Source of the DNA: a virus | Taxonomy: Duplodnaviria > Caudoviricetes | Length of the DNA: 52,593 nucleotides | Virus record (IMG/VR): IMGVR_UViG_3300017747_004549 | Location: 1 to 52,593 of that record | Reading direction: 5' to 3' (one strand) | In this document: in pieces, positions 8,381 through 38,004 of the stretch | Position numbering within the stretch: position 1 is the first letter of the stretch | Layout: each line of letters starts with the position of its first letter | Made by a program: the position numbers and the translations under genes | Notes under the pieces: generated by a model | Databases searched by the model: none | The model's input: the letters and a program-made list of their open reading frames with translations, nothing else | Told to the model about the DNA's origin: nothing

Positions 8381-8732
8381 TGCGTTCTTTCTCCGGCTTG
8401 CTAGTTTGACCGACCAGGGGCCCTTCGCCTAGATCGCAGAACCTTTCCCGTAGCTCCGGTGATCCCAGCCCGCCGGGCGTCGCGATCGCGACCGAACCCG
8501 GCCGGCAGCTCCGGAGCACAGCGCCCAGCGACGCGCCCGGCGTTTGGATCGCGATCTTCGACCCGCAGGCGAACAAAGTAAATTCCTGAGTAAACATCGC
8601 GCCGACGTTTGACCGGCCGCAAACCGGGCAGCGCAGGAACAGCTCCGACAGATACCAGCCGACCCGGACCCGATCGACCCAGCGATCCGGCAGGTTTGCG
8701 GCTTCGATCGATTCGCTTTGACCATCACTCAT
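8373..8732 (-). CDS. Hypothetical protein with CPVCG
   Basis: ATGA overlap with the MTase stop; start MSDGQ. Confidence 0.5.
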   Translation of the reverse strand: MSDGQSESIEAANLPDRWVDRVRVGWYLSELFLRCPVCGRSNVGAMFTQEFTLFACGSKIAIQTPGASLGAVLRSCRPGSVAIATPGGLGSPELRERFCDLGEGPLVGQTSKPEKERNG

Positions 8733-9694
8733 TTTCCGGATTCTCCCTGAGTTGTTGCCGCGCTGTCGAGCTCCGCGATCGCTTCGCCGATCCGCCGGTT
8801 TGATAGCTCGACTTGCGACGCGCGAGCGTCGAAACACAAATACCGACGGCCGGCGAGCACCGCGGCCGCGGCCGTCGTGCCGGATCCGCTGAACGGATCG
8901 CAGACCACTCCGCCCGGCGGACAGAACATCAACACAAATTCACGCGCGAGCGACTGGGGGAATGGGGCCTCGTTGTCATGCGCCAACGGGGATCCCATTA
9001 GCCCGCCGCCGACCTTATGCCAGCGGACGTTGCCGGGATTCGCTAGTTTCGGCTTAGCGTATTTTTTCGCCCGCGTCCGCTTGTCGCTCTTCGTGCGATT
9101 TGTCGCCACTCCGCCGGCTTCGTATTTCGGGGGCTCGCCGATCGCCGTTGGATCGCCGTAAGGAAGCTTGACCACGTCGCGCGACGTTGCGCAAACGATA
9201 AGCTCGTAATTGTCCCGCAACCAGTCCGGCCCACCGCTGCCGGGCGTCCCCCAGCGCGCGAATATTGGGGGCTTGCGTACCCGGAATGTGGGCCCGAACT
9301 TGTCGCAGCGGCAAGCGCAGAACGTGCCGGTCGCCCCCAGGGCAGAAAGTCGCCGCCCACAGCCGCGACACGATTTCGAGCGCTTCAGATCCGCGACCAG
9401 CATAAACGGCGTCGCGCTGTTCTCGAAATCCTTTGTAAACCCGTTCACCACGAACGCGACCAGCCCGCGGGATACCCGCGTCGCTTCCGTGAAAATTTCG
9501 AGCATCCAGGAAACCCAGGCTTCGCCGACCAGCGACGTAATGCCGGGCTCGCCGTTGTAGCGTCGCTGCGCTTCGTAGGGGGGCGAGCCGAAAATCAGAT
9601 CGATCGACTTGCTTTCCATCGCGCGGAGCGATCCCAGCGCGTCGCCTTGCGACACACTGCCAAGTCGAGTTATCAGGCTGTTTGTAAAGCTCAT
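8729..9694 (-). CDS. Beta-class DNA methyltransferase, likely N4-cytosine
   Basis: DLIFGSPPY catalytic motif before H.APFP and the DPFSGSGTT SAM-binding motif. Confidence 0.88.
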   Translation of the reverse strand: MSFTNSLITRLGSVSQGDALGSLRAMESKSIDLIFGSPPYEAQRRYNGEPGITSLVGEAWVSWMLEIFTEATRVSRGLVAFVVNGFTKDFENSATPFMLVADLKRSKSCRGCGRRLSALGATGTFCACRCDKFGPTFRVRKPPIFARWGTPGSGGPDWLRDNYELIVCATSRDVVKLPYGDPTAIGEPPKYEAGGVATNRTKSDKRTRAKKYAKPKLANPGNVRWHKVGGGLMGSPLAHDNEAPFPQSLAREFVLMFCPPGGVVCDPFSGSGTTAAAAVLAGRRYLCFDARASQVELSNRRIGEAIAELDSAATTQGESGK

Positions 9695-14267: not shown

Positions 14268-16568
14268 TTACCGGGCCCCGGAAAATGGCAATTCGTCGCC
14301 GTAGGATCCCACCGCAACGGGCTCATCGTCCGCGGGCATATCGGGATTCGGGGGCGACCAGTTGTCGCCGGCTTCCTTCATCAGTGACGCGAGCCGCTCG
14401 TCGATCTTATCGTGAAACTCCCGGGAAGTCCGGCTCGGTTCCCTTTGTCTTCCTTCAATGATAAGGTTCCAAACAGCTTTCTCCGCATTGTCCGTGTTCA
14501 TAAATTGCGGATAGTTGCTTTCTAAATACTCCGCGGCAACATCCATCCCGACAACGTGATCATAGTCGCCGCCGCGGCCGTCCTTGCCGCCGCGGTTTTC
14601 AACCCGCTTCAAGTCGCCGGCGTCCTTGCCGAGCATTTTTCGCAACGAGTCTTTCAGATTCTCGCGGTCCCGAAAATCTTGGATATGCTCGCCCCAAACT
14701 TCATCCATGAATTGCGCGTATGTCTCTTCACTCATTCCCCATTGTTCAGCCTGATAAGCCATAATTTTTTTCAGGCTGCGCGTATTTCCAGGAGCTCGAT
14801 CAAGCGCGTCCTTCTCCGCGGCCGTCTTCGCTTCCTTTTTGGCGGCCGTCACTTCCTCGCGCTTCTCATCAAAAAAATCAGCGACGCCGGCGAACTTGTC
14901 CTCGCCGCTCTTCTCACGCGTCGCTTTCTGTTCCGCGAAGTAGCTCCCGGATTTTGTGACGTGCATCCCGCGCATCCCTCGCGGACCGCCGGCGATAATG
15001 TTCCCGTCCTTGTCGAGCTTGACCGGGAAGCCTCCGACGTGCTCGCCGCCGTCGCCCTTCCGGCCCCCGATCGTCACCCAGCGCTCGCCGTTGCTGGATC
15101 CGCCGCCGTCGCCGGCGAGCTGCAAGAGCTCCGCGTCGCTCGCGAACTGCAGCGCCGCCGGGCTGATCCATTCCCCAGGACGATAGTAAACGCCGCCCAC
15201 AGTCGAGCCGCAGAGCGGCCGGGCTTGCCTGGGCGTCAATCGGTCCCGCCAATTACACGTGCGGGCGCGAGAGTCGCCGGCGCTGAATTGAGAATTTCCG
15301 TAGCCTTCCGCCGATGCACCAACAGGCGGGGAGTCCCCCGCGGATTGTGGGCTCGCCGGCGGGCGCTGAAAACCGAATCCACTAAAGATCGAGCTGGATC
15401 CGCGGCCGCCGTCCTCTTTCTCGCCGCCGCCCATAAGCTGCTGAATTGTCTCGATCAGCGGCTTGACCTTGATTTGATAGGATGGGGCGCAGCCGAATTC
15501 CCAGCGGACAAGCGGCCGGATAATTTGCTGATCGACTTGCCGCGCGTAGCCCTCTCCCTCAGTCTGCAGCGCCGCGAGCAATCCAACCATCGGAATCGTA
15601 CGGCCGTTGTAAGCGTTGCCGCCCTCCGCCGTTTCGAGAACTTCCCCAGGCACTTCGAGCCCCTCGACAATCTCAAGATCGAGCTCCTTCTTGTATTCAT
15701 GGATCGGCGTCGCGCCTTCGACGGCCGTCGGGCCCGTGTATTCCCATTCGTAGTTACCATCGGCCGTGCGATCGCTGGGGATCCCCATCACTCCGCCCGA
15801 TTGCCGGAGCTGGATAATCTCGCGCGCTACGTCGCGCCAGCTAACGACTTCGCCCCCGGGCGTCAGCGTGCGCCGATTTGTGGGATATCGCAAAATGTCA
15901 CCTACCCAGGCGTCCTTCATCATCCGGAGCTGCCGGAGCTTGATCGCGCCGCCGCGCTGCCACTTTTCATGCCAGGGCGCGTAAGCGTGCTCGACAAGAG
16001 ATTGCCCGTAGTAATTGGAATAGCGATCTTTGTACGTGATCCAACAGCCCTTGGGCGCAAATAGCGCGAGCTTCCCGCCGGCCCCGTTTTGGCAATTGTT
16101 CAGCGTCAACCCGACAATCTTCCCCTCGCTAACCAGCGGGCGTATGTCGCGGGGATGAAAATCCCGATACCCGCAAAACATCGCCCGGCCGGCGTCCGGG
16201 CTGTTTGCGTCGCCGGGCTCAAACATCGGCTCGAAGCCAGTCCAGCCAATATGCTTGGCCTCGACAATAACGGGCCCGGCGAGCGTCCAGATTTTTTCCC
16301 ATTGCCGCGCGACATATTCCCGGATTCCAGGCGGACCTCCGACAACCTCAATTTCCATCTGCGCGAGTAGCCCGTTCCGGATCGCAAGCGCCAGCGTCAC
16401 CTTGTGATCGAACATCATCAATTCGGCCGTAACCGCGGAAAATGGCGGCCGGTCTTCATAGTGGAACAGCGCCCCAGGATTGCCGACCCGCCGCTTGTAT
16501 TCCTCCGATTGAGCCCGCTCGCTTGTTAGCTGATCGTGAGACAATTTAGGCCACTGAAACCATCCCAT
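14268..16568 (-). CDS. Portal protein (Mu gp29/DUF935-like) with a long C-terminal extension
   Basis: M..D..V..AL..R, G..GFE, YYGQSL...AY.PW..K and QIIRPLVRWEFG pattern over the first ~380 aa; no other portal candidate. Confidence 0.72.
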   Translation of the reverse strand: MGWFQWPKLSHDQLTSERAQSEEYKRRVGNPGALFHYEDRPPFSAVTAELMMFDHKVTLALAIRNGLLAQMEIEVVGGPPGIREYVARQWEKIWTLAGPVIVEAKHIGWTGFEPMFEPGDANSPDAGRAMFCGYRDFHPRDIRPLVSEGKIVGLTLNNCQNGAGGKLALFAPKGCWITYKDRYSNYYGQSLVEHAYAPWHEKWQRGGAIKLRQLRMMKDAWVGDILRYPTNRRTLTPGGEVVSWRDVAREIIQLRQSGGVMGIPSDRTADGNYEWEYTGPTAVEGATPIHEYKKELDLEIVEGLEVPGEVLETAEGGNAYNGRTIPMVGLLAALQTEGEGYARQVDQQIIRPLVRWEFGCAPSYQIKVKPLIETIQQLMGGGEKEDGGRGSSSIFSGFGFQRPPASPQSAGDSPPVGASAEGYGNSQFSAGDSRARTCNWRDRLTPRQARPLCGSTVGGVYYRPGEWISPAALQFASDAELLQLAGDGGGSSNGERWVTIGGRKGDGGEHVGGFPVKLDKDGNIIAGGPRGMRGMHVTKSGSYFAEQKATREKSGEDKFAGVADFFDEKREEVTAAKKEAKTAAEKDALDRAPGNTRSLKKIMAYQAEQWGMSEETYAQFMDEVWGEHIQDFRDRENLKDSLRKMLGKDAGDLKRVENRGGKDGRGGDYDHVVGMDVAAEYLESNYPQFMNTDNAEKAVWNLIIEGRQREPSRTSREFHDKIDERLASLMKEAGDNWSPPNPDMPADDEPVAVGSYGDELPFSGAR

Positions 16569-16585
16569 CGCTCATTCTCCCCTCG

Positions 16586-16714
16586 AAAGTAACGGGCCGA
16601 GTCTACTTTTAATCCGCGCAAGTCGTTGCGGGGTCTAATGTAGTAACAAGTAAAGTAAAACGCCCCGGCGCGCATAAAAAAACCGGCCGGGCCTCGCGCA
16701 CGTGTATATTACTT
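16586..16714. repeat. Dispersed origin-like element, copy A
   Basis: Shares four blocks at identical spacing with 46077-46205. Confidence 0.8.
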
Positions 16715-16757
16715 GCGCGAACCCCGGCCGGCGATAGTTGGGCCAGCTTGCCGGATC

Positions 16758-17012
16758 CTAAGCGATCGCGGCGAGCGGATCCACGTCGCAACCGCCAGCG
16801 CCGCAACCACCGCGGCGGCCGCCGCCGCGGCGACGCCGGAACGGCCAGATCGCCAGGGCTTCGCCCGGATCGCGGCCCTCGATCAGCTCGCCATCGATCG
16901 GCCGCGGGAATTCAACCGGCTTCGCCGCCGCCGCCGCGCCGATCCCCAGCGGGAAAAACAGCGACGCGCCCAGCAACAGCAGCAAACCAAAAACGCACAG
17001 AAAACGAAACAT
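16758..17012 (-). CDS. Small membrane or exported protein with a basic Gly/Cys tail
   Basis: Hydrophobic N-terminus; WPFRRRRGGGRRGGCGAGGC; GAGGG RBS. Confidence 0.6.
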   Translation of the reverse strand: MFRFLCVFGLLLLLGASLFFPLGIGAAAAAKPVEFPRPIDGELIEGRDPGEALAIWPFRRRRGGGRRGGCGAGGCDVDPLAAIA

Positions 17013-17066
17013 CGGGAAACCCCTCGAACAAGATCCCGGCCGGAAATAGCGGCGGCCGGATCCGCT

Positions 17067-17570
17067 TTACTTCCGCTGCGCCGACAGCTCCCGGTCGAGC
17101 TGATCGGACCGCTGAACGCCGGTAAGCGACTTAATCACCTTGCCATCCGGCCCCAGAATGATCGTTGTCGGCCAAAGTCGGATCCCGTATTTTTCCCGGG
17201 CTTCGCGATCGGTCAGCGTGATGTATTGAAAATCGTCGCCGTCAGTCTTGCCGACTTTATACCCCTTGGCTGTCAGCTTGTCGGCCTCTTGCTTTTGCGT
17301 CCCACAGTGCGGGCAGTGCCACGTCGGGGAACAGATCAGCGCCCGGGCTTTCGGCTTCGCTGCCGGAGCTGCCGGAGCTGCCGGAGCTGCCGCCGGCTTG
17401 GCGGCCTCGACAAGCTGCCGGGCGTCGCTCGCGAGCGCAGAACGGGCCAGGACGCCGGCCGCCGCGCTCTTCAAGTGCCCGGTTTGCCGCTCTTCAACCG
17501 TCGGACCGCTGGGGGAAAATGCGGCGGCCGCAACCGCCAGAAACAAAACGATCGCAATTGCGCGAAACAT
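17067..17570 (-). CDS. Exported thioredoxin-fold protein
   Basis: Signal peptide MFRAIAIVLFLAVAAAA, AP linker, WHCPHC, YGI..WPT.II...DGK......G. Confidence 0.8.
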   Translation of the reverse strand: MFRAIAIVLFLAVAAAAFSPSGPTVEERQTGHLKSAAAGVLARSALASDARQLVEAAKPAAAPAAPAAPAAKPKARALICSPTWHCPHCGTQKQEADKLTAKGYKVGKTDGDDFQYITLTDREAREKYGIRLWPTTIILGPDGKVIKSLTGVQRSDQLDRELSAQRK

Positions 17571-17635
17571 CCTTGAACCCCTAAAAAAACGCGAGCCCCG
17601 GCAGCGGACGAACCGACCCCGCCAGGGCTCGCAGA

Positions 17636-17935
17636 CTAGAATCCTTCGCCGTGATCGATCAGCGGGAAGCCGTCGGGCCCCGTTTTGCGCTGGGGCGGCC
17701 GGTTTGCGTATGCGGCGTGCCATTCGTCCGTTGTGTACCGACGTTCGGCCGGCGGCGCGTCTTCCTTGAACAAGTGCCGATGATCGAACAGCCAGACCTT
17801 GACAGCGACCACCGTCCGCTCAAACAAGTTTTCGCGCGGGGGCTGCCCCGGAGCGCCGGCCGGCCGATCGAACAGCGCGACGGCTGCAACCACCAACAAT
17901 AGCAACCACGGTAGAAACGAGCTTTTAGTTTTCAT
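17636..17935 (-). CDS. Small membrane-anchored protein
   Basis: N-terminal TM FLPWLLLLVVAAVALF; GAAGGGGG RBS. Confidence 0.65.
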   Translation of the reverse strand: MKTKSSFLPWLLLLVVAAVALFDRPAGAPGQPPRENLFERTVVAVKVWLFDHRHLFKEDAPPAERRYTTDEWHAAYANRPPQRKTGPDGFPLIDHGEGF

Positions 17936-19208
17936 GCTGAACCCCCTTCAAAATCGCTGGCAGGCTGTTTTGCCGGAAGATCGCCGCGGCGCGCGCATCA
18001 TAGGCCTCAGGCCGGAAATTGTCACCCCTAGATAGCGGCAAATTCAGCGCCGCGAGCCCTCGCTCCCGGCCGGATTTTTCGTAATGTACCCAGTCACCAT
18101 GCTTTAGATCGCGCCACTTGAACCCGCCGACGCCGGCCAGCGCGAAGCTGTCCCGGCCGCGGAGCATCCGCGTCGCTACGTCGGCGTCCACCCAGAAAGA
18201 TCCTTCCGGCTGATCGTCCGGCCACTTCGGACCGCCGACCCAGGACGGGCCCCAGGAATTCAGACACAGCAAGCCCGGCCGATCGTAGCGCACCCCGATA
18301 AAACACATGCAATGCGACCAGGATCCCGACGGCCGGCTGAACCCGTCGGCGTCGCGCTGGCTGCTGAATCCTTGCCCAGAACAAACGGGAACAGGGTAGC
18401 CCGACTTGATCGCGGCCGCGGCTTCCTCGAAATCGACCACTAGCGAAACATTTCGGACCGGATGCTTCTTCGCCTCATTGTCGAACCGGCCGTTATCGCC
18501 TTGCCCGCCGCAACCGTAGTTTCCCCAGTCCTTCGCGCGGCGCGAACTGTATTGAGTCAGATCGAAACCAAATTCAGGGTAATCGACCCGGAACGCGACG
18601 CCGTAGTCGTGCAGGAACTTCGACGCCCCGCCGCCGTAGCTGCCATCGCCCCAGCCGCCGTTCGGGGGCGGCCCGCCGTGCGCTTCGACTCGCGACCCGC
18701 CATAAATCGACTCTGTCGCCGCTTCAATCCAAGAATCTTTCGGGACAACCCCGAGCTCGCAATCAACAGCAAGAGTGATATCGCAACCGTGCTTGTATCC
18801 CCAGGAAACACAATCCCCGATCCCCTGGGATCCGACCACAAAATCGCGGCCGTACTTCGCGCGGTATCGCTTATACATCGCGCGATAAAGCAACACTTGC
18901 GTTTTGTCATCGTCGCGAAACAACCCGGGGGCGGCCGTCGAAAGCGATCGGCCGGGGAGAGTAGCAACGAAAGCTTCGGTCCGATTTTTCTGGGGAACCC
19001 AGCCGAATTGCCCGGCCGGCGTGCCGGTCGCATATTCGCCGATCGACGCCGGCGCTTGCGTGATCCGGACGAGCTCGCCGTCCCTCCGGATCGCCGGCCC
19101 GACGGGCTCAAGCTTCCGCCATTGCTCGATCGCCACGCCCGCGACGATCGCAACCGCTGCGACCCCCAACAGCGCCCAGGCCAGCGGATGCTTTTTTTTG
19201 CTCGACAT
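17925..19208 (-). CDS. Membrane-anchored papain-like (C1-type) cysteine peptidase
   Basis: N-terminal TM; QGIGDCVSW (oxyanion Gln and catalytic Cys), SHCMCFIG (His), LNSWG (Asn). Confidence 0.85.
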   Translation of the reverse strand: MSSKKKHPLAWALLGVAAVAIVAGVAIEQWRKLEPVGPAIRRDGELVRITQAPASIGEYATGTPAGQFGWVPQKNRTEAFVATLPGRSLSTAAPGLFRDDDKTQVLLYRAMYKRYRAKYGRDFVVGSQGIGDCVSWGYKHGCDITLAVDCELGVVPKDSWIEAATESIYGGSRVEAHGGPPPNGGWGDGSYGGGASKFLHDYGVAFRVDYPEFGFDLTQYSSRRAKDWGNYGCGGQGDNGRFDNEAKKHPVRNVSLVVDFEEAAAAIKSGYPVPVCSGQGFSSQRDADGFSRPSGSWSHCMCFIGVRYDRPGLLCLNSWGPSWVGGPKWPDDQPEGSFWVDADVATRMLRGRDSFALAGVGGFKWRDLKHGDWVHYEKSGRERGLAALNLPLSRGDNFRPEAYDARAAAIFRQNSLPAILKGVQHEN

Positions 19209-19238
19209 TCTTACCCCTTAGAATTGCAACCCGCGGCC

Positions 19239-19721
19239 TTAATGCTCCGCGGCGTATTTCGCGCAAGCCGCGGCCGTGCGCGTCGCCTTGATCCAGCTCT
19301 TGACGTCCTCATCCGTGAGCGGCCCGCCTCCAGTGCCGACCTGGGATTCCATCCATTTTTCCGTTTCGGCCGCAACCCCGGGGTATTTCGACATAAACGA
19401 CCAGCCGCCCATTCTGTATTCCCGGAGCGCGATCCGAAAATCGTCGATCTGAACGCCGGTAGAAAACCGCCGCTCTTTTTTGGATTGATCGTATTCGATC
19501 CCGTCGGCCAGCGCCTCGAGGATCGTTTCAAAGTCGTGCGCGTGCCGGCGAGCTTCGGCGCGATCGTCATTTGTTGCGAAAGCCGCAACATAATCCGGGC
19601 CCTCCGCCGGCCGCGGCGCAGGCGCTGGAACGATCGCGGATCCCTTGAACAGCTCGCCGGCGAACAAGATCGCGCAGCCGATCATTGCAGCCACGATCAG
19701 ATTGCTATTGTTGTTTTGCAT
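19239..19721 (-). CDS. Membrane-anchored or exported helical protein
   Basis: Hydrophobic N-terminus followed by a PAPAP linker. Confidence 0.65.
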   Translation of the reverse strand: MQNNNSNLIVAAMIGCAILFAGELFKGSAIVPAPAPRPAEGPDYVAAFATNDDRAEARRHAHDFETILEALADGIEYDQSKKERRFSTGVQIDDFRIALREYRMGGWSFMSKYPGVAAETEKWMESQVGTGGGPLTDEDVKSWIKATRTAAACAKYAAEH

Positions 19722-19756
19722 CAGCTCGCCACCTTGAAAAAAACGCGAAGCCAGAA

Positions 19757-20044
19757 CTAGGCGGGCGGCGGGCTGTAAAGCTTCGCCGCGACGCCGGCAA
19801 TCGTCGCTTGGATTTCGGCCTCCGGGACGCCCTTCGATCGCAGCGCCGCAACCACCACGTCGAGCGCCGCGAATGCTTCGCCCGACGTTCGCACTTTCGC
19901 GACTGGGACGATCGTCGGCAATTGCCGCGGAACATCGGCCGCCAAGCTGCCGGAACTGCCGGAGCTCTTGAACGTGAGAAGCAAGTAGCCGACGACGGCC
20001 GCGATCGCCATCGCTGCCATCGGGTTAGATTTGATAAATTCCAT
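19757..20044 (-). CDS. Small single-TM protein
   Basis: MAAMAIAAVVGYLLL; GAGGAG RBS. Confidence 0.7.
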   Translation of the reverse strand: MEFIKSNPMAAMAIAAVVGYLLLTFKSSGSSGSLAADVPRQLPTIVPVAKVRTSGEAFAALDVVVAALRSKGVPEAEIQATIAGVAAKLYSPPPA

Positions 20045-20090
20045 GACCAGCAGCTCCTCGAAAGTGAAATAAGATCAGCAGCGCCGGAAA

Positions 20091-20423
20091 CTATCGCGAC
20101 GCCGCGGCGTGTTTCAGCGCTTCGTATTGGGCTTCGACTTGCGCGGAAAGGTAATTCAAAATTGCTTTCTTGAGCGCCCAGACGATCCAGTTAAACGGCA
20201 TCGGCAGCGCCGGCGTGAGCTGATCGATCAGATCGCTTACCCATTGCATGACCAGCGCCTTTTTCTCCGGCCCGGGATTCGACAGGCGGAAAGCGCTGCG
20301 CACGCAGAGCGCGACGAACCGCGAAACAATCAGGCCGGCTTCCGCGATCGACAACCCGTCGGCAGCTTGCCGGACCGCGTCGTCGTAAAAAGCTTTCACG
20401 TCCTCATCGAAAGTCGTTGGCAT
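20091..20423 (-). CDS. Possible holin-like amphipathic protein
   Basis: G.EKK..V motif, amphipathic helices, first gene of the membrane-protein cluster. Confidence 0.4.
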   Translation of the reverse strand: MPTTFDEDVKAFYDDAVRQAADGLSIAEAGLIVSRFVALCVRSAFRLSNPGPEKKALVMQWVSDLIDQLTPALPMPFNWIVWALKKAILNYLSAQVEAQYEALKHAAASR

Positions 20424-20486
20424 TTTTGAGCTCCAAGAGTGGGGAATGTTCGCCTATTCTTACAGCCAGCTCGATCCCCGTCTAGC

Positions 20487-20754
20487 TTAGAACTGTTCCA
20501 GATCGCCGCCCTCAAGTCGCGCCCGGTAAATTTGCATTGTGTAGTTGTGGGCGGCCTCATTGTCGCCGAAAGACAGTCGCGCGAGCGCCTGAATCCGTTT
20601 CATTTTCTCTTGAGACAGATCCCCGAACCTGAGCTCCCATTCTGCTTGCAGCCGCGGGATACAATCCAGCAGCGCGCGACGATCGAGCGAATTCAATCCT
20701 CTTGCGTCAATGTTGAGCCAGAACCCGATCCGGGCGATAGGGTAATTTTTTTTT
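20487..20754 (-). CDS. Probable -1 frameshift extension of the tail assembly chaperone (GT-like)
   Basis: Open -1 frame (NYPIARIGFWL...) beginning at the A9 run, with no independent start. Confidence 0.6.
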
Positions 20755-21133
20755 GAGCGTCGCGAACCGATGACACAATCGCGTTGTAGAACTTCGCGGC
20801 CTCTTGCCGGGCGCAGCGATTCACGCCGAATCGATCTTTTAGGAGCTGCGCAACGTCGTCGAGATACTTGCGCGATGGGCGGATGAACTCGCCACCCTGC
20901 GCCCCGCAATGCGGACAAGTGTAATCGTCGAGCTTTCCGAAAACGTCATCATCGGGAACGTGATCGCGCCCACACTTCAAGCAGTGATTCGGGTCGAGTC
21001 GATGCGCTGAGTCGATATCGACAAGCCAGTCCTGGGCGTCGTAAATCTCGACTTCAAACGTGATCCCGTTGATCGTGAATTCAGCCCAAACGCTATCGGA
21101 ATCGAGTGCGATCGCGTCGCTTTTATCTGCCAT
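20693..21133 (-). CDS. Putative tail assembly chaperone with an internal zinc ribbon
   Basis: CLKC and CPHC; slippery A AAA AAA near the 3' end (QKK). Confidence 0.55.
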   Translation of the reverse strand: MADKSDAIALDSDSVWAEFTINGITFEVEIYDAQDWLVDIDSAHRLDPNHCLKCGRDHVPDDDVFGKLDDYTCPHCGAQGGEFIRPSRKYLDDVAQLLKDRFGVNRCARQEAAKFYNAIVSSVRDAQKKITLSPGSGSGSTLTQED

Positions 21134-22838
21134 CTTCTTCTCCGTCCTTCATGCAAAATTCTTTGATCTTCGGCGCTTTCACGCCGTACAACTGCCCCTT
21201 CACACGGTATAGGATCGCCCAGCGTGCGCCGATCAGGGGGCAGTCGAAATAGGAAACGAGCGGCTCGACTTTGATCGATCGACCCATTTCCTCGACCTTG
21301 ACGCCGGCCACCGTTTTTAGCGCGGGGATTTCGGGATTCCACTTGAGCCGCATCGCGCGGCCCGTCATCAATATATAATCGTCCGTTTTTCCTTCGAGCT
21401 GAACAACGTGATCCTTCGCGGCGACTTCCCCAGGGCTGCCGCTGATCGCCGTCGGAAAGGGCGACGATGTTCCGTCCCCCGTCGGCGAATCGCCGGGCAA
21501 TTTCCAGTCTTGCATAATGCGGTGAATGATCGCGTTTTGCGACTGAGTCCCCATGATCGAGTTGCGAAAATCCAGATACGAATTTTCTTTGGTAACGTCC
21601 GGACAAGTCAGCCGGAGCGAAGTATTTTCGTAGGGCTGGGGGCGGCCGCCGCCGTCATTTCCTAGATTGAATTTTGCCGGAGCCGCGCACAGATCGACAA
21701 TCACGTCGTCGTTGGCGCTGAATTTTAAGCCAGCGCCGCCACGCGGGGAGAACACGCCGGCCGCTTCCATTGACGTTCGCCATTGTTGATAGTTCGTCCC
21801 CGGCACCGCGGACCATAGCCCGGCCTTTGATAAGATTTCATGCAAGCAAGCGGTCATTCGCCACTGAACAGAAAACCGCGACGATCGGTCGAACAGCTTG
21901 CTCCCGAATTTGATTCGCTCCGGAATTACAACACCTTTCGGCCCGGCCGTCGCTTTGAGCTTCGCCGCAATATCAAACATGATAATAAAGAATTTGTCGG
22001 CCGCGACTTTCTTAGGTACTCCCGGCGCAACCTTGAGCGTTCCCGACAGTGATCCCGCCCATTGCAGAAAGCCGGGCGGCCGGTTTTCCAGATCGTAGTC
22101 AAGATCGGCTTCGATGATTCCGGCGGGGAAAGCGTCGCCGGTCAGCTCTTCGTGAACCACCATAAACTCGACTTTGTTTCGCTTGCGATCGAACCGCCGG
22201 CGAAACGTGACGGGCTTAAAATATTGCGGACAGTTAAACCGGATCCTATCGAAAGCCGCTTCCGGATTCGCCGCGATCTTGTTCCCGTTTCGGAATTGCA
22301 CAATACCGAGCTCGCCATTGATCGCGCGAGTCAGAAGCCCTTCCGGATTTGTCGCGTACTCAATATCGTATTCAAACGACATTACGTCGCCGGCGCTGAT
22401 CGACGCGCTCGCGCACTTGGGCGGGATAGTAAAGCGACATTCCCAGACCACGTTCCAGCACAGATCCGCGCCCCAGGGAGTACAGGCCAGCAGCGCCGGC
22501 CGCGGCCCCATATCGATATCCGGCGTTGTCCCGTTGCGGCTTGTGTTGATCGTCCCCCCGAGCCCGATATCTGAAATGATCAGCGTCGATCCCGGGCGCG
22601 TCAGCGCAGCCACGACAGAATCCATCCGCGTTTGCTGCCGGGCAACCGTCGATTCGGTCGCGTCGCTGCCGTGAATTTTTCCAGTGACGGACAAAAAACA
22701 ATCGATCGCAATCACCGCGCGCTGCGCGGTATCGTATCGCGGCTCGTACCGGAATTGAACATTCCGCAGCGCGCTAAACGTGTAGGCCCCGTAAGACAGC
22801 GTTCCGAAACCCGTTGTAAGATCTTTGACCTTAGTCAT
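21123..22838 (-). CDS. Putative tail protein (distal tail / hub)
   Basis: 571 aa, beta-rich, immediately after the tape-measure-like gene. Confidence 0.55.
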   Translation of the reverse strand: MTKVKDLTTGFGTLSYGAYTFSALRNVQFRYEPRYDTAQRAVIAIDCFLSVTGKIHGSDATESTVARQQTRMDSVVAALTRPGSTLIISDIGLGGTINTSRNGTTPDIDMGPRPALLACTPWGADLCWNVVWECRFTIPPKCASASISAGDVMSFEYDIEYATNPEGLLTRAINGELGIVQFRNGNKIAANPEAAFDRIRFNCPQYFKPVTFRRRFDRKRNKVEFMVVHEELTGDAFPAGIIEADLDYDLENRPPGFLQWAGSLSGTLKVAPGVPKKVAADKFFIIMFDIAAKLKATAGPKGVVIPERIKFGSKLFDRSSRFSVQWRMTACLHEILSKAGLWSAVPGTNYQQWRTSMEAAGVFSPRGGAGLKFSANDDVIVDLCAAPAKFNLGNDGGGRPQPYENTSLRLTCPDVTKENSYLDFRNSIMGTQSQNAIIHRIMQDWKLPGDSPTGDGTSSPFPTAISGSPGEVAAKDHVVQLEGKTDDYILMTGRAMRLKWNPEIPALKTVAGVKVEEMGRSIKVEPLVSYFDCPLIGARWAILYRVKGQLYGVKAPKIKEFCMKDGEEDGR

Positions 22839-28856: not shown

Positions 28857-30614
28857 TTAGGCGCGGCTTGCTTCCGTCGCGTTGATTGAAATCCGTTGCC
28901 GCGAAACTTGCTTGGCCGATCCGTCGGCGTTCATGCTGGATCCGTGCCCAGTCCGTTCGAGCACGCTGTTAGCGAATTGGATCGCCTCTTTCGAGCCGGC
29001 GACGATCTGTTCCGGCTTGCCCATCGTGTACCGCTCGCCGGCCGGATGCTCCGGCGTGACGATCGCGCCGGATAGTTGTTGGTAAGCTTTCGACTGATCG
29101 ACAAACAGCGCGCCGAGCGACTGGCCCGCGGCTTCGTACTGCGCGACCAGCCCGGACAGCGAAACACCCCCGGCGGCGACTTCCTTCCCGTCGGCGCTGA
29201 ACTGAACCGCGCCGACCTTCGCCAGCAAGTTGTCCGCGATCCCCGGCGGGATCGCCTGAGCTTCTTTGAGCCGGCGGATCCGCTCGACCAGATTCGCCTG
29301 GGGCGATCCGCTCGAAAACTGAACCGCTTGATCTTCGTACATTGCCAGCAGATCGCCGATCGTCATCGCGCCCGGCAGTCGCTTTTCCGTGCCGCCGCTG
29401 AACTGGACAGCGCCGGCGTTGACAAGCAACGTTTCGCGCATCGCGGGCGGCAGTTGCTTGCAGCCCTTGATACGTGCGACCAGCGCGGCGCGAGCCGCGG
29501 CGTCGTCAACCGGGAGCGTGGGCTTGCCGCCCGACATTTGCGAACTATTCATCGGCGAAAACTCCTGCGCTTTCCCGCCGCCGCCAGGACCGCCGCCGGG
29601 CGTCGCTTGCGCGGCGTCTTCGGCTTCGTTCATTGCGTCGGCTTCGTTTAGCGTCATAAATGCGGTGAGCAACCGCGAAACCAGATTGTCGAGCGTCGTA
29701 TCCGCGGGCATAACGATCCCGCGGCGTTTTGCGTGAGCCAACAGCGCCTCGAGTTGCATCGCGTCGCCGTCTGCGCCTTGCGGCATATCGGGATTGCTGG
29801 GCGGAGCGTTGGCGATTGGCGGCATTCCGCCGCCGCCGGCCCCGGCGTCGTTCCCCCCGGCCGGATTCCCGGCGGGTCGATTATCGGCCCCCGGCCGGGG
29901 ATCTTTGTCGTCGTCTTCGCGCTCTTCGTCGTCGTTTCCGAACGCGAGCTGTACAGCGATCGTCCGCAAAAATTGTTGATCGGCTGCCGACAGGCTGCCG
30001 GGCTTGCGGGTCTTGATTGGCGTCGTTTTCACGTGCGGACCTTTGATTAGATCGGCCGCCGACAGTTGCAACGTTTGCCCGTTCAGCCGACCGAAAGGGA
30101 CAGAGGACAGTTGAGCGAATCCCGGGCGCTGATCGGTTTGGATCGGGTGGTGAGTCAGGGCGATATGCGAAACCATTTCGGGAAACACGTTGCCCGTCCG
30201 CGGATCTTCCCAATAGTGCCGCAGCTCCGGCGAAACAAATTCGATCGAGCCGCTCGCGAGCTGCGCGGCCGCGTGGGGATCCCCGATTTCGAGAACCACG
30301 TCCAGCCCGCCATTGGCGTTGATAACACAGCTCCGCGAATCGTCGGCGCAAGTTTTTCCGACAGTGAGCGGCATCAGATCGTTGGCGTCGAGCTCTTGAG
30401 CCGGAGCCGGGACGCCCTCGATTTGACCGGGAGCCGGATCGACGTGCTCGTAAATAACGGGAGCGCGGAGCCCCGCGGCGTGCAAACTGATTAGGCTTTC
30501 GCGGCGCTTGGCAACGTCTTCGGCCGTGACAACGATCCGCTTCCCGTGCTTGAAATAGATCCCGGGCCTCAAGATTTCCTTGACGAACCGCGCGGGATTG
30601 ATCGTTGCTGGCAT
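28857..30614 (-). CDS. Prohead protease-scaffold fusion (Mu gpI-like)
   Basis: EILRPG.Y, PVIYEH, FVSPEL and HIALTHHP, then a low-complexity helical scaffold. Confidence 0.75.
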   Translation of the reverse strand: MPATINPARFVKEILRPGIYFKHGKRIVVTAEDVAKRRESLISLHAAGLRAPVIYEHVDPAPGQIEGVPAPAQELDANDLMPLTVGKTCADDSRSCVINANGGLDVVLEIGDPHAAAQLASGSIEFVSPELRHYWEDPRTGNVFPEMVSHIALTHHPIQTDQRPGFAQLSSVPFGRLNGQTLQLSAADLIKGPHVKTTPIKTRKPGSLSAADQQFLRTIAVQLAFGNDDEEREDDDKDPRPGADNRPAGNPAGGNDAGAGGGGMPPIANAPPSNPDMPQGADGDAMQLEALLAHAKRRGIVMPADTTLDNLVSRLLTAFMTLNEADAMNEAEDAAQATPGGGPGGGGKAQEFSPMNSSQMSGGKPTLPVDDAAARAALVARIKGCKQLPPAMRETLLVNAGAVQFSGGTEKRLPGAMTIGDLLAMYEDQAVQFSSGSPQANLVERIRRLKEAQAIPPGIADNLLAKVGAVQFSADGKEVAAGGVSLSGLVAQYEAAGQSLGALFVDQSKAYQQLSGAIVTPEHPAGERYTMGKPEQIVAGSKEAIQFANSVLERTGHGSSMNADGSAKQVSRQRISINATEASRA

Positions 30615-34221: not shown

Positions 34222-35772
34222 TCACGCCCCCAGGTCAAAAACAATATCGCCGATCAGCCGGCCGTCCACTTTGAGCATCGCCGCATAACTTAGCGTGTCG
34301 AGCTGATCGCAAACCTCGTCGCTTGTCCCTTGCCACGTGAAGAGCTCCGCCTCGAGCGCCGGCAGCCAGGGCGCATAGTCCGGCAGGAAAAGACGCCCTT
34401 CGCTCGACTCATGGGTAGCATCGGCCGCGCGGACTAGCTTGTCCTTTCCTTCCGTCGTGATCCCGACAACCGGGAGCCGCAGGCTTTGCAAGTGCTGAAA
34501 ATAGGGGCGGCCGATCCCGTCCTTCTCGACAAAAATCGCCCGCGGCCGTTGCTGTTCATTCACGCCGCAAACCATCTTGACCACGTCGGGGAACTCGCCT
34601 TGAATCCGATCGACAGCCCGCCAGAACATGAACCCGGGCCCCGTCGTCACAATGTCCCAGGTGCTCGCGACTGACCAGGAAGGATCTTTCTTTTTCTTGG
34701 CGATCGCGTTTTGCTCGCGCTCCGTACCGGCGGGGTCGAAAGTCACGAACCGATAGCATTCCCTTTCGTGAAAAACTTTCCAGATCGACCCGTCCCGGTT
34801 TGCGATCTTGTAATATCCCGCAAGCCCGGGATCGTATCCCGGATGCCTGAACCGCCGCTCGAACCACTCCGGCTTATATCGGCCGGCGGCGCTAATTACC
34901 CAATTGCCCGCCATGAGTTGTTCGCGCGTGACAACGTCGAGCTGCCGGAGCCCGCCGCGATATTCCTTCGCGTCGAGCGACGGATTGTCGCGCAGCTTCG
35001 CCGGAACGAACACGCGCCGGCATTGATCGACCTCGCCAGTTTCGGGATCCGCGTAAGAATCATCGCGCAGAAACGCCGGCGGATTTGTGCCGCTCAAAAT
35101 CGCTTTCGCATAGTCGAGCGACATGAACCGATCGCGCAAAAAGTTATGCAGGACGCCGCCCGGATTGCCGGCTCCGCGCATCCGTAGCGGGATCGCAGGA
35201 AGCCCGGCTTCCGCTTTCAGTCGCCGGAGTCGCGAAAACATATAAAGATATTGCCGCGCGGCAAATTGCCCCAGCTCATCGAATCCAATGAAGTGCCAAG
35301 CGCCGCCTTGATATTGCCGCTCTTCGTCGCCGACGTTGTTCGCGTGCCCAAACTCACAAGTCGCGCCGCTGGGGAACGTGAACCGCTTTCCCTTCGCGGC
35401 GTAGGTGATGCCGGATCCCGGCCGGAGCCACCACGACTTCGCGCGGTCGAGGATCGCTTCGCTCCGCTCTAAGTCTACCGAGCTCCGCCGCAGGATCAGC
35501 CCGCGATAGTGGGGAAGGTCGATGAACTGTAGGAAAGCCATCAAGATCAGATCGCTTTTGCCGCCGCCGGCCGCCCCGCCGTAGAACAATTCGCGATCGT
35601 CAAACGACAGGCAAAAATTTTGCTTCGCGTGCGGGACGTGCGGACAGAACCGCGGGTCAATCCGCGGCCCCAGCAATTGATTCAGCCGCTCGCGCTCGTG
35701 CGGCTTCAAGTAGGGCCAGAGCGTCGTCAATTCGGCCGGCGTGGGTAAGCGGGATAAAGGGCTTGCGATCAT
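34222..35772 (-). CDS. terL: Terminase large subunit
   Basis: FYGGAAGGGKS Walker A, FIGFDE Walker B, GNPGG, FDPA and DQLDTLSYA nuclease motifs. Confidence 0.95.
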   Translation of the reverse strand: MIASPLSRLPTPAELTTLWPYLKPHERERLNQLLGPRIDPRFCPHVPHAKQNFCLSFDDRELFYGGAAGGGKSDLILMAFLQFIDLPHYRGLILRRSSVDLERSEAILDRAKSWWLRPGSGITYAAKGKRFTFPSGATCEFGHANNVGDEERQYQGGAWHFIGFDELGQFAARQYLYMFSRLRRLKAEAGLPAIPLRMRGAGNPGGVLHNFLRDRFMSLDYAKAILSGTNPPAFLRDDSYADPETGEVDQCRRVFVPAKLRDNPSLDAKEYRGGLRQLDVVTREQLMAGNWVISAAGRYKPEWFERRFRHPGYDPGLAGYYKIANRDGSIWKVFHERECYRFVTFDPAGTEREQNAIAKKKKDPSWSVASTWDIVTTGPGFMFWRAVDRIQGEFPDVVKMVCGVNEQQRPRAIFVEKDGIGRPYFQHLQSLRLPVVGITTEGKDKLVRAADATHESSEGRLFLPDYAPWLPALEAELFTWQGTSDEVCDQLDTLSYAAMLKVDGRLIGDIVFDLGA

Positions 35773-36423: not shown

Positions 36424-36609
36424 TCAATAGCCCAGCTCGCGAAACCAGTCGCTTAGTCGCATGACGATCAGACAGAACACGCAACCAGCCAGGAAGCCCG
36501 GCAAAATTCCGTACAAAAAGCCGGAGCTGAAAAACGCCTCATTCAGTCGCTTTCGATCGGCCGAAAGATCATCGACGCCGATCGGGGATTCGTAGGGATT
36601 CGGGCCCAT
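36424..36609 (-). CDS. Small membrane protein with NPYESP
   Basis: MGPNPYESP plus a C-terminal TM; GGAG RBS. Confidence 0.55.
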   Translation of the reverse strand: MGPNPYESPIGVDDLSADRKRLNEAFFSSGFLYGILPGFLAGCVFCLIVMRLSDWFRELGY

Positions 36610-36613
36610 CGTG

Positions 36614-36799
36614 TTATCTCCAAAATTTCGGGATCGCATCGGCCGGCGTCCGCTCGCGATCGCGGCGATTTTGCTCCGCTCGCTCGTGTCTGTCATTCAG
36701 GCACCCGACCGTCCGGATCGTGAGCCCAAGCAAGAGCAATGCCACAGCGAAGAAAGCTACGGTGGCTGTGCTGTCTGTCGCTTTTTCGATAAAGCTCAT
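36614..36799 (-). CDS. Small membrane protein
   Basis: One TM; ATGA overlap with the MTase stop. Confidence 0.5.
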   Translation of the reverse strand: MSFIEKATDSTATVAFFAVALLLLGLTIRTVGCLNDRHERAEQNRRDRERTPADAIPKFWR

Positions 36800-38004
36800 T
36801 TGCGTTTCGCTTTCTTGCCGGTCACTCGCTGCCACCTATTCACGATAACATCGCAGTACCCAGGATCAATCTCCAAAGCGTAGCAAGTCCGCGCGAGCTG
36901 ATCGGCCGCGATCAGCGTCGATCCGGATCCCGCGAAGGGCTCATAGACCAGCCCGTCGGGCTGACAGCTATTAGCGATCGCCCTCGCTGCCAGGGCGACC
37001 GGCTTTTGTGTCGGGTGCTCATAATCTTTCGAGTGATCGCGATTGATCGCCCACACGTCGGAAGCTTCTGCCATCGATCGACCCGCGAACCATTTGTTGA
37101 GCCCGCCGCCCCGCGGCTTGAATCCGTGGAAGATCAGCTCGTATTGATTGTGATAGCCATTCGGCTTGAGCGCGAAATTTTCCTTGACCCAAACGAGCAT
37201 CCGCGGGAGCTGCCGGCAGTAGAGCTCGAACAATTTCCCGTATAGCGGAATGTTCCCTTCTCCGCCGCAAAAATACAGCCGGGCGTCGGGCGTTGTCGCG
37301 ACCCGAATCGCGAGCTCGAACGCAAACGGGATCGCGGTTTGCGTCACGTCGCCGGCGATCGTCTTGTTTTGGTTCCCGCCTTGAATGTTCACGCCGTAGG
37401 GCGGATCGGTAAAAACGCAATCAGCTTTCCGCTTGCCCATCAGCGCCAGAACGTCGGCTTCCTTTGTGGCGTCGCCGCATAGCAGCCGATGCTCGCCCAG
37501 CTTCCAGATATCGCCCGGCTTCGTGATCGGATCGGCCGCCGGCGCTGAATCGTCGATCTGTTCGACTTCCGGCGCTGGATCCTCGACAGTCAGCGACGCC
37601 CACAGATCCAGGGCTCCGACTTGTTGCTCGAACATGCCGGCGAAGGGCTCGCGATCCTGGGGGACGGATCCGATTAGATCCTCGAGCGCCGCAACGTCGA
37701 AACTCTTGAGCGTTGTAGTCCAATCGAAAGACGCCGTAACGGCGTTCATTTCCTCTTCGCTTAGATCCGTGATAATTACGGGGACCACTTCATCGCCCGC
37801 GATATCCCGCCGCAAGTGTCCATCCCAGATCTGAACCCGGCCGTCGGGGAGCTCGATCCCTTTCAGGGCGTCAACCATGCCGACGTCGTTCATTAGCCGG
37901 CCGACGATCGCCCTTTGCTGATCGGTATGAATCGACGGATTCCGGGGATGCTCGACAAGCTGCGACGCCGGCAGCTCGACAATCTTCAAAATACGATTGC
38001 GCAT
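36796..38004 (-). CDS. ParB-N / DNA amino-methyltransferase fusion (beta class, DPPY)
   Basis: HPRNP..H and DGHLR; HRLLCGDAT, VFTDPPY, HPTQKP, YEPFAGSGST. Confidence 0.92.
   Translation of the reverse strand: MRNRILKIVELPASQLVEHPRNPSIHTDQQRAIVGRLMNDVGMVDALKGIELPDGRVQIWDGHLRRDIAGDEVVPVIITDLSEEEMNAVTASFDWTTTLKSFDVAALEDLIGSVPQDREPFAGMFEQQVGALDLWASLTVEDPAPEVEQIDDSAPAADPITKPGDIWKLGEHRLLCGDATKEADVLALMGKRKADCVFTDPPYGVNIQGGNQNKTIAGDVTQTAIPFAFELAIRVATTPDARLYFCGGEGNIPLYGKLFELYCRQLPRMLVWVKENFALKPNGYHNQYELIFHGFKPRGGGLNKWFAGRSMAEASDVWAINRDHSKDYEHPTQKPVALAARAIANSCQPDGLVYEPFAGSGSTLIAADQLARTCYALEIDPGYCDVIVNRWQRVTGKKAKRK

Follow-up and report, generated by a model that had tools for sequence, protein, structure and literature searches.

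The question raised by the locus described here is whether a tailed phage may open its host with an exported protease instead of a wall hydrolase. The locus is a run of seven genes on the minus strand, at positions 16758-20423 of a complete virus record with direct terminal repeats (IMG/VR record IMGVR_UViG_3300017747_004549), all 52,593 bp of which were analysed and are referred to below as the window. From the DNA letters, an original prediction had read this run as a candidate lysis module, in which an anchored papain-type peptidase and an exported thioredoxin would act on envelope protein in a genome devoid of a recognisable endolysin. The observation behind this prediction is confirmed by the present analysis, and its interpretation is partly supported. 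The run is a real functional unit, a mobile cassette that occurs across at least three unrelated phage backbones, and we infer that it most likely serves as the lysis module for a large group of phages of Pirellulales-type planctomycetes.

A predicted membrane-tethered peptidase in a run of anchored proteins

All seven open reading frames (ORFs) between 16758 and 20423 proved to be where they had been placed. In the order of transcription they are called here m1, m2, m3, the peptidase gene, m5, m6 (the thioredoxin) and m7. Each shows a coding-type codon-position pattern (G+C at third codon positions, GC3, of 0.71-0.78) and a purine-rich Shine-Dalgarno-like motif ahead of its ATG; the gaps between the genes measure 30-65 bases, and the stop of the peptidase gene overlaps the start of m5 by 11 bases. 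The membrane or exported character ascribed to the run also holds, with a Kyte-Doolittle scan finding one hydrophobic segment near the N-terminus of each of the seven products. Such a segment is present in 15 of the 84 minus-strand ORFs of at least 45 aa that were surveyed in the window (against Pfam at E<=0.01 and PHROGs at E<=1e-3), and the seven form the only consecutive run of such ORFs. A scan for promoters and terminators across 16200-21400 returned sites no more numerous than in shuffled sequences.

The peptidase (427 aa; 17925-19208) had been recognised as a C1-type enzyme with an intact Gln/Cys/His/Asn set and an N-terminal anchor, and its fold, its invariant residues and a conserved hydrophobic helix all bear this out. 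Q128, C133, H299 and the motif N317-S-W-G are invariant in 28 of 28 aligned homologues, as are four further cysteines (276, 300, 302 and 315). With an AlphaFold model built on these 28 homologues (pLDDT 77.8), Foldseek finds 247 PDB matches at E<=1e-3, headed by xylellain (3ois, 8e-10), and all matches listed are C1A enzymes; in VIA the same model reaches a Z of 20.5 to xylellain (rmsd 3.2 over 239 residues) and of 15.7-18.2 to 49 further C1A entries, with procathepsins and pro-papain at Z 16-18. Sequence profiles do not reach this family: Peptidase_C1 (PF00112) leaves the peptidase unmatched even at E<=10, a profile of the 28 homologues meets papain only at E 1.7, and phmmer against the PDB sequences gives no match. 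In a weak profile alignment, the NSWG motif is aligned with N175-S-W-G of papain (residues 175-178). Membership in the papain family (MEROPS C1A) rests on the modelled fold and on the motifs. There are more than 1132 homologues of the peptidase, a few of which are named 'C1 family peptidase' by two database sources.

The enzyme can be divided into a membrane helix (about residues 8-33 in the model), a pro-region-like segment (about 61-100), a catalytic domain (about 101-361) and a disordered tail (362-427). The hydrophobic part of the helix spans residues 9-27 (Kyte-Doolittle 2.53), nearly every aligned sequence has it, and the N-terminus carries a signal-anchor as in the signal-anchor-release (SAR) endolysin systems. 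Because lysines precede this helix (MSSKKKHP), the catalytic domain is predicted to be exported, and the sequence suggests an N-in, C-out topology. Mature C1A enzymes align with the model from about residue 100, whereas xylellain and the zymogens align further upstream, the zymogens from about residues 22-35, and residues of about 61-100 therefore behave like a pro-region. As modelled, the peptidase is a predicted membrane-tethered, zymogen-like C1A enzyme of the xylellain type. Soluble homologues of about 310 aa, 43-47% identical and devoid of anchor or signal, are encoded in two Mucilaginibacter isolates and on a Balneolaceae chromosome (L104:9950-10873, L109:9839-10798 and L099:9866-10798), those of Mucilaginibacter directly after a GT87-GT2-polysaccharide deacetylase cluster and that of Balneolaceae among metabolic genes. 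The anchor has evidently been added to a soluble enzyme by the phage lineage.

A mobile cassette and its exchangeable parts

An alignment-based scan of IMG/VR with the peptidase found at least 599 matching stretches that carry it, and 84 loci were fetched for comparison by tblastn. In these, m3 is the most constant neighbour, lying directly upstream of the peptidase in 80 (three of the four misses have the peptidase at a contig end), and m1 is found about 1 kb upstream in 27; no other window protein, both flanking structural genes included, has a match in any of the 84 loci. When 2005 ORFs from 118 loci and the window were clustered and the families aligned, however, m2, m5 and the anchor part of m6 turned out to be conserved as well, yet too divergent for BLAST. 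The common order of the cassette is an m1-like, an m2-like and an m3-like protein, the peptidase, an m5-like protein with a DHxxGW end, a Transgly_assoc-type protein (in 9 of 81 loci with at least three downstream ORFs) and a Cys-rich or thioredoxin-like slot protein.

This unit stands in different surroundings in different phages. In backbone A, with genomes of 30-33 kb, the order is small terminase, large terminase, portal, a canonical prohead protease (phrog_80, E 4e-42), cassette and capsid. In backbone B, the cassette comes after DNA-metabolism genes (metallophosphoesterase, exonucleases, RusA, a dGTP diphosphohydrolase-like gene) or, in lambda-like temperate phages, after the end of the late genes, and backbone C is the arrangement of the window. 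A peptidase ORF was called in 105 loci: genes for terminase, portal or prohead protease lie upstream of it in 25 and a major capsid gene lies downstream in 22, with 15 loci having both, and DNA-metabolism genes (RusA, exonucleases, metallophosphoesterase) lie upstream in 31; no locus mixes the two contexts. The DNA-metabolism context resembles that of lambda, where the lysis genes come after the nin region. Two side observations belong to individual relatives. In a Blastopirellula marina provirus, a 124-aa protein resembling the C-terminal domain of the RNA polymerase alpha subunit (L004:1326-1697; PF03118, E 4.5e-9) is encoded directly upstream of the cassette and may be a late-gene regulator. 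Another record (G004) has a 1090-aa lambda gpA-type large terminase (L125:677-3946) that also matches a LAGLIDADG domain (PF14528, E 1e-8), which suggests an intein or a homing-endonuclease insertion.

Further evidence on what the cassette is selected for comes from phages in which its enzyme has been replaced. The portal of backbone A was used to fetch 73 more loci, 25 of which extend for 3.5 kb or more on its downstream side. The C1 peptidase lies about 2 kb downstream of the portal in 23 of these 25 and is absent in two (L180 and L185). In these two, small membrane ORFs and an exported protein of 244 aa (L180:7348-8079) occupy the slot ahead of the capsid gene, a gene 83% identical to its counterparts in the other loci. 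The exported protein begins with a signal peptide and combines a CxxC...CxxCxGxG motif with a trypsin-like domain (Trypsin_2, PF13365; E 1.1e-21, over the cut-off) in which the His, Asp and GDSGGP motifs are visible. Trypsin-like serine peptidases of this kind (244-256 aa) are also present in L208-L220. Thirteen viral loci have such a slot protein, and of seven examined, five are headed by a clear m1-family member, four have a capsid gene downstream and one belongs to a different backbone; a complete 30-kb genome with the serine-peptidase version gave no match to Phage_lysozyme, Amidase_2, SLT or M15_4 in six-frame searches. Thus, two unrelated protease classes alternate in one slot, together with a common first gene and a common Cys motif. 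This alternation argues that proteolysis outside the cytoplasmic membrane is under selection, and proteolysis itself seems to be the selected activity. Since we know of no peptidoglycan hydrolase with a trypsin fold, it also favours a protein substrate.

Directly ahead of the serine-peptidase gene, six of seven loci encode a highly conserved 290-aa protein that has no signal peptide (L212:5126-5995; also L213, L214, L215, L216 and L220) and whose motifs, NQNPTHECTCHS and GRNGHAVPW, are reminiscent of a Cys/His enzyme. It was considered as a divergent papain-like enzyme and rejected, with neither hmmsearch using the peptidase-family profile nor Pfam giving a match and hhalign returning a probability of 0.3%.

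Membrane and exported proteins that pass as an intact unit from one backbone to other, unrelated ones behave as a lysis cassette or as a moron rather than as part of a virion assembly line. As a moron, the cassette would serve not for lysis but as an envelope-remodelling or exclusion module which, in the course of infection or in the lysogen, trims surface or periplasmic proteins of the host and thereby blocks superinfection, destroys receptors on which progeny would otherwise be caught, or changes the cell surface. Its movement between genome positions is just what morons do, and the same can be said of its insertion within the head-gene block in one backbone, of its proximity to integrase genes in some temperate relatives and of the prophage copies in Blastopirellula and Bremerella genomes; the absence of a recognisable holin or spanin family points in the same direction. 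However, a cassette retained in 23 of 25 further members of backbone A, with a protease substitute in the other two, is easier to reconcile with an essential function than with an optional one. The cassette is also present in the window phage, in which Pfam and PHROGs scans of the ORFs detected no integrase, and the complete genomes yielded no lysis candidate apart from the cassette. We regard this explanation as quite unlikely.

The gene order of the window bears on a further possibility, that is, a role of the peptidase in the virion. With a G+C content of about 61%, the window has essentially every gene on the minus strand, and a tRNA scan found none. Transcription order begins with replication genes (SNF2 helicase, UvrD helicase, primase/polymerase) and proceeds through a ParB-methyltransferase gene to the large terminase (34225-35772), which is followed by head and neck genes (a lambda-D-like decoration protein, an E-type major capsid protein, a Mu gp36-type adaptor and a neck protein) and then by genes for a 487-aa protein with a weak tape-measure match, a 571-aa protein and a 146-aa zinc-ribbon protein, all on the minus strand. 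After the seven-gene run come, on the same strand, a 766-aa protein, a 414-aa protein (phrog_1362), a Mu-F-like minor head protein and an 823-aa protein. The run thus sits within the late, structural half of the window, with virion genes on both sides. Its location directly after tail genes, as originally described, applies to the window, where the genes immediately upstream have a tail-related appearance on weak evidence; it is not conserved, since elsewhere the cassette occupies the gap between prohead protease and capsid or follows DNA-metabolism genes. The 766-aa protein directly downstream (14268-16568, minus) has a weak portal match in residues 47-203 (phrog_113, E 1e-4), and a 585-aa protein encoded after the terminase, where a portal gene would usually lie (28857-30614, minus), is without any match. 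Two N6/N4 DNA methyltransferases are encoded at 8729-9694 and 36796-38004 (minus), one of them fused to a ParB-like N-terminal region. For the peptidase and the flanking 766-aa and 571-aa proteins, tblastn found no match in 50,697 GenBank phage records, and the window phage is therefore without a cultured relative; its host is probably a planctomycete.

From its place among structural genes in the window, and beside a prohead protease in one backbone, the peptidase might be thought to process capsid or other virion proteins. This is very unlikely, because the conserved N-terminal anchor and its preceding lysines predict export, which would place the catalytic domain beyond the cytoplasmic membrane. 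Moreover, all neighbours of the peptidase are membrane or exported proteins, backbone A already has its own canonical prohead protease, and in other backbones the cassette is far from the head genes. We give virion maturation next to no weight.

The thioredoxin m6 (167 aa; 17067-17570) had been described as an exported protein with a CPHC active site, and this description stands: a signal or anchor segment is followed by an Ala/Pro-rich linker and a minimal thioredoxin fold, with C80, C86-P-H-C89 and W133-P134 as landmarks. The start at 17570 is preferred, and a longer 218-aa reading from 17723 is unlikely because the ATG at 17723 has no Shine-Dalgarno-like motif, whereas that at 17570 does, and because the extension has a non-coding pattern. 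Alone, m6 meets the Pfam Thioredoxin family only at E 0.21, but a profile of m6 and three homologues matches 2kuc (3.6e-4), the thioredoxin 6bkv (1e-3) and ResA (about 5e-3) in the PDB, and the three homologues match Thioredoxin_2 at 8.8e-6 to 1.7e-3, all below the curated cut-off; from these profile matches, a thioredoxin fold is assigned to m6. The CxxC cysteines and the WP of the cis-Pro type are invariant in all four sequences of the family, and an extra invariant cysteine stands six residues ahead of the CxxC. That CPHC might be a signature of DsbA, and hence of an oxidase, has become less plausible: the dipeptide varies among these four closest sequences (CPHC twice, CTYC, CQYC), the domain measures only about 90 residues, and the PDB profile matches listed are not DsbA but of the thioredoxin, ResA, DsbE and DsbD-C type.

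A conserved linkage of the C1 peptidase with a thioredoxin, such as the original prediction had led one to look for, is not found. No m6 match was obtained by tblastn in any of the 84 related loci, and a protein collection contains three homologues only, one of which is encoded on a 52,702-bp contig; a peptidase homologue of 79% identity is found on a contig of identical size. Elsewhere, the slot of m6 is taken by a Cys-rich CxxCxGxG protein (38 of 81 loci) or by a thioredoxin-like protein of a different family (7 of 81, all in Blastopirellula- or Bremerella-type loci, with 6 of 6 tested matching Thioredoxin_7). In the other 36 of 81 loci the clustering finds neither type of Cys domain; some of these loci are non-phage, and part of the 36 are probably noisy ORF calls. 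The N-terminal anchor region is common to m6 and the Cys-rich slot family (hhalign probability 80.5%, E 1.3e-5, 38 columns). The thioredoxin is one of at least two interchangeable Cys-containing domains in a fixed slot and not a conserved partner of the peptidase. Its poor conservation argues against a universal mechanistic role, and it is read here as a lineage-specific redox helper. An identity of the Cys-rich slot protein as a DnaJ-type zinc finger was also examined and dropped, with 0 of 9 representatives having a Pfam match to that family and the CxxCxGxG likeness being at the level of the motif only. Some proteins with DnaJ-type CxxCxGxG fingers have thiol-disulfide activity, and a common redox role of the slot domains would fit, although Pfam does not place the Cys-rich domain in the DnaJ family.

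The remaining cassette proteins are small and predicted to be anchored, and several of them have Pro-rich linkers that are potentially suited to a spanin-type role. First in the cassette, m1 (110 aa; 20091-20423) is helical, with a motif G-x-EKK-x-x-V and weakly hydrophobic segments, one of them at 23-41. The ESM Atlas offers a lead, at 0.82, to a cluster that has Phage_holin_6_1 in 23% of its members. The earlier label of m1 as holin-like could nevertheless not be substantiated, with no Pfam or PHROG match and 0 of 25 family members matching Phage_holin_6_1 at E<=1. Holin_LLH was rejected for m1, since despite the Atlas lead of 0.82 none of the 25 family members matches at E<=1. We treat m1 as a candidate holin or regulator. 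The second protein, m2 (95 aa; 19757-20044), consists of an N-terminal membrane helix (hydrophobic at 9-27), a linker and a helical domain of about 45 aa. It aligns with the cluster-19 proteins at the equivalent position of related loci at 18-25% identity, and proteins of the same build, as judged by eye, occupy this position in Blastopirellula and Bremerella loci.

In m3 (160 aa; 19239-19721), an N-terminal membrane helix and a Pro-rich linker precede a four-helix bundle; the AlphaFold model (pLDDT 89.5) has helices at 6-26, 54-79, 89-104, 114-128 and 137-159. The idea that m3 might be a hidden wall hydrolase was rejected: the bundle is plain, and its best scores (E 1.9 in Foldseek, Z 7.4 in VIA) lie within helical-bundle noise, with no lysozyme among the structural matches listed. 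An m3 profile against the PDB sequences gave chance-level matches to the ribosomal protein eL31 only, and the best score in the ESM Atlas was 0.79, to no named family. When the complex of peptidase residues 66-380 with the periplasmic domain of m3 (residues 40-160) was predicted with alignments for each, the score was 0.02 against a mark of 0.32, a value that speaks neither for nor against an association.

Downstream of the peptidase, m5 (99 aa; 17636-17935) has an N-terminal membrane helix and a conserved C-terminal end, DG-x4-DH-x-(R/E)-G-(W/F). By tblastn it has no match in the 84 loci; by BLAST clustering, m5-like proteins occur in 37 of 81 loci and could be aligned with the proteins directly downstream of the peptidase, a kinship that is based on their common build and end motif. 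The last gene, m7 (84 aa; 16758-17012), is lineage-specific, with no match in the 84 loci by tblastn and none in Pfam; its product has an N-terminal hydrophobic segment and an Arg/Gly-rich tail with the sequence CGAGGC, and the gene has a GC3 of 0.78 and a Shine-Dalgarno-like GAGGGG. A weak alignment of m7 to the Transgly_assoc family was not convincing, and m7 was not accepted as a protein of this type. Transgly_assoc-type membrane proteins are found in 9 of 81 related loci, and 8 of 12 aligned sequences match PF04226. They are 85-aa GlsB/YeaQ/YmgE-type proteins (best E 2e-7) encoded between the m5-like and the Cys-rich genes, for instance at L044:3033-3296 and L055:9392-9646. The transporter classification presumably lists this family as a putative holin family.

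The search for an endolysin and a possible course of lysis

The original prediction had recognised no lysozyme, amidase or M15/M23 enzyme in the window, and within the limits of the tools used (Pfam and PHROGs scans of the window ORFs, six-frame searches) this still holds. Three relatives that are 97-100% complete (60, 44 and 42 kb) were searched for lysozyme, amidase, M15, M23, SLT, CHAP, NlpC/P60 and GH19/25/108 families, and the Pfam scan (E<=1e-4), which covered 150 of their 151 ORFs of at least 101 aa, gave no match to any of these. In six-frame searches, Phage_lysozyme was found in 0 of 5 records of relatives, and Amidase_2, SLT and M15_4 were each found in 0 of 5 records (the window and four relatives), as was GH19 in a search that had no positive control. 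In 12 further records, eight of them at least 90% complete, Phage_lysozyme, Amidase_2, SLT and M15_4 each gave 0 of 12. Altogether, no tested lysin family was found in the window and 11 further records of at least 90% completeness, which cover three backbones and include compact genomes of 30-33 kb. For comparison, of 201 genomes sampled from the order of Blastopirellula marina, 16 contain the peptidase (8 of them at a score above 260 bits), 4 contain Phage_lysozyme and 3 contain M15_4.

A possible course of lysis can be outlined as follows. The seven genes, which would encode inner-membrane-anchored, periplasm-facing proteins, would be expressed late. The peptidase would be exported by means of its anchor, which would keep it tethered to the membrane as an inactive precursor. 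The trigger could be a membrane event, for which one of the small proteins would serve as holin or pinholin, or else a thiol-disulfide step carried out by the thioredoxin or its Cys-rich counterpart. This trigger would allow removal of the pro-region, by which the enzyme would be both activated and freed from the membrane, and the freed enzyme would then cut a load-bearing envelope protein or the peptide links of the wall, while the other anchored proteins with their Pro-rich linkers might help to breach the outer layers. The thioredoxin might keep the catalytic cysteine reduced, or sort out the other cysteines of the enzyme in an oxidising compartment; it might also uncage the catalytic cysteine or act as a reductant on disulfides of the envelope itself.

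We regard the cassette as a candidate lysis module built on a tethered papain-type protease, with a confidence somewhat above even. Several points weigh against it. In Pfam and PHROGs, m1, m2, m3, m5 and m7 matched no holin, antiholin or spanin family, and inspection by eye revealed no lipoprotein signal or lipobox in the cassette proteins. The site between prohead protease and capsid gene in backbone A is unusual for lysis genes. The peptidase family is specific neither to phages nor to planctomycetes, and since soluble chromosomal copies in Bacteroidota stand in non-phage surroundings, the peptidase is not a dedicated lysis enzyme by descent. Most ORFs of these phages are unannotated, two proteins (the peptidase and m3) having been folded, so that a divergent muralytic enzyme could be hidden among them; for M23, CHAP, NlpC/P60, GH25 and GH108, coverage comes only from the scans of ORFs against Pfam and PHROGs in the window and in three relatives. 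Amidase_2 is present in 63 of the 201 genomes of the host order, mostly as single copies of about 65-90 bits that are taken to be housekeeping genes, and planctomycetes reportedly have peptidoglycan; a need for wall hydrolysis therefore cannot be dismissed. Moreover, two overlapping ORFs of 90 and 73 aa with one strong hydrophobic segment each lie at 36424-36835 (minus) of the window, between the ParB-methyltransferase and the terminase region; one of them has a weak match to Phage_holin_2_4 (E 0.0093), and they may constitute a separate holin-like gene.

The same unmatched ORFs in the window and its relatives, the peptidoglycan and amidases of the hosts and the small membrane ORFs at 36424-36835 speak for an accessory lysis module, which would breach outer protein layers, as spanins or LysB do after the wall has been cut, with an unrecognised muralytic endolysin encoded elsewhere in the genome. 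Yet such an endolysin would have to have escaped detection in the window and in all 11 records of at least 90% completeness, and where the cassette enzyme has been exchanged, a different protease has taken its place and no wall hydrolase. An accessory role is unlikely in our view. Returning to the cassette as the lysis module proper, we propose more tentatively that no peptidoglycan hydrolase at all takes part when phages of Pirellulales-type planctomycetes lyse their hosts. Instead, an exported, tethered protease, of papain type in most lineages and of trypsin type in some, would be released and activated as infection ends and would digest a load-bearing protein layer with the help of a thiol-disulfide or Cys-rich partner. 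We consider this specific version doubtful rather than probable. Given planctomycete peptidoglycan, non-muralytic lysis is a hypothesis and not a consequence of the findings.

Lysis by such a cassette would provide a handle on what holds the planctomycete envelope together. To our knowledge, all lysis systems of tailed phages of walled bacteria use a peptidoglycan or pseudomurein hydrolase. If the proposal is true, an exported protease in place of a wall hydrolase would represent a new class of phage lytic enzyme, and the stress-bearing element of the planctomycete envelope would be at least partly protein, as older cell-wall chemistry suggested. Even with an accessory role, the module would bring together a tethered, zymogen-like protease and several conserved families of unknown fold and function. 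With more than 1100 proteins and at least 599 viral stretches, the cassette is common, prophages of the culturable Blastopirellula marina and Bremerella cremea carry it, and genetic tools for planctomycetes exist; the question is therefore testable at the bench, with the swap from a C1 to an S1 protease serving as a built-in comparative control.

Relation to known peptidases and lysis systems

In its fold, its Gln/Cys/His/Asn-Ser-Trp-Gly residues and an N-terminal part that aligns with pro-regions, the phage peptidase is like xylellain of Xylella fastidiosa (3OIS), procathepsin B and pro-papain. It differs from these C1A enzymes by an identity of only 12-18% in the matches listed, by the missing Pfam match, and by its membrane anchor and conserved membrane-protein neighbours. 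The spacing from Gln to Cys is one residue shorter than what we take to be that of papain, and cysteines 276, 300, 302 and 315 are presumably not the classical papain set. A full-text literature search found no published description of this cassette or of protease-based phage lysis in planctomycetes. Short bacterial C1A peptidases of the xylellain type have been acquired by tailed phages according to a review (PMC10380794), which, in the part that we draw on here, assigns no function to the phage copies. The thioredoxin m6, in turn, is like ResA/TlpA, CcmG/DsbE and the C-terminal domain of DsbD in combining a signal or anchor segment and a linker with a minimal fold that contains CxxC and WP; it differs from them by a family of only three homologues, by its extra cysteine and by a slot in a phage cassette that it shares with a Cys-rich non-thioredoxin domain.

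Well-known lysis cassettes include that of lambda (S-R-Rz/Rz1), which encodes a holin, an endolysin and spanins, and the SAR endolysins are exemplified by Lyz of P1 and R of phage 21. The cassette described here is like these systems in its compact set of small membrane proteins around one exported enzyme with a predicted signal-anchor, the latter as in SAR endolysins. Like them, it is mosaic and moves among backbones, and one enzyme class can replace another in it while the small leading gene stays. The redox partner proposed for it has a parallel in P1 Lyz, the activity of which is gated by a thiol-disulfide switch. In contrast to the lambda-type cassettes, its enzyme has a papain or trypsin fold and not that of a lysozyme, amidase or transglycosylase, no known holin or spanin family is represented, and there are five to six anchored proteins instead of three or four.

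Among lysis enzymes adapted to an unusual envelope, the nearest precedents are PeiW and PeiP of methanogen phages (MEROPS C71), pseudomurein endoisopeptidases, i.e. cysteine peptidases that cut a non-standard wall, and LysB of mycobacteriophages, a non-muralytic lysis esterase that cuts the link to the outer layer and acts alongside the muralytic LysA. These enzymes belong to families and folds other than C1A and act on defined envelope bonds, whereas the cassette peptidase is a candidate known from its sequence and model, and LysB works together with LysA, to which no counterpart was found for the cassette. As it resembles a holin-endolysin cassette with a signal-anchored enzyme but has neither a recognised muralytic domain nor a known holin or spanin family, we file the cassette as a variant of the phage lysis cassette that stands outside any described type.

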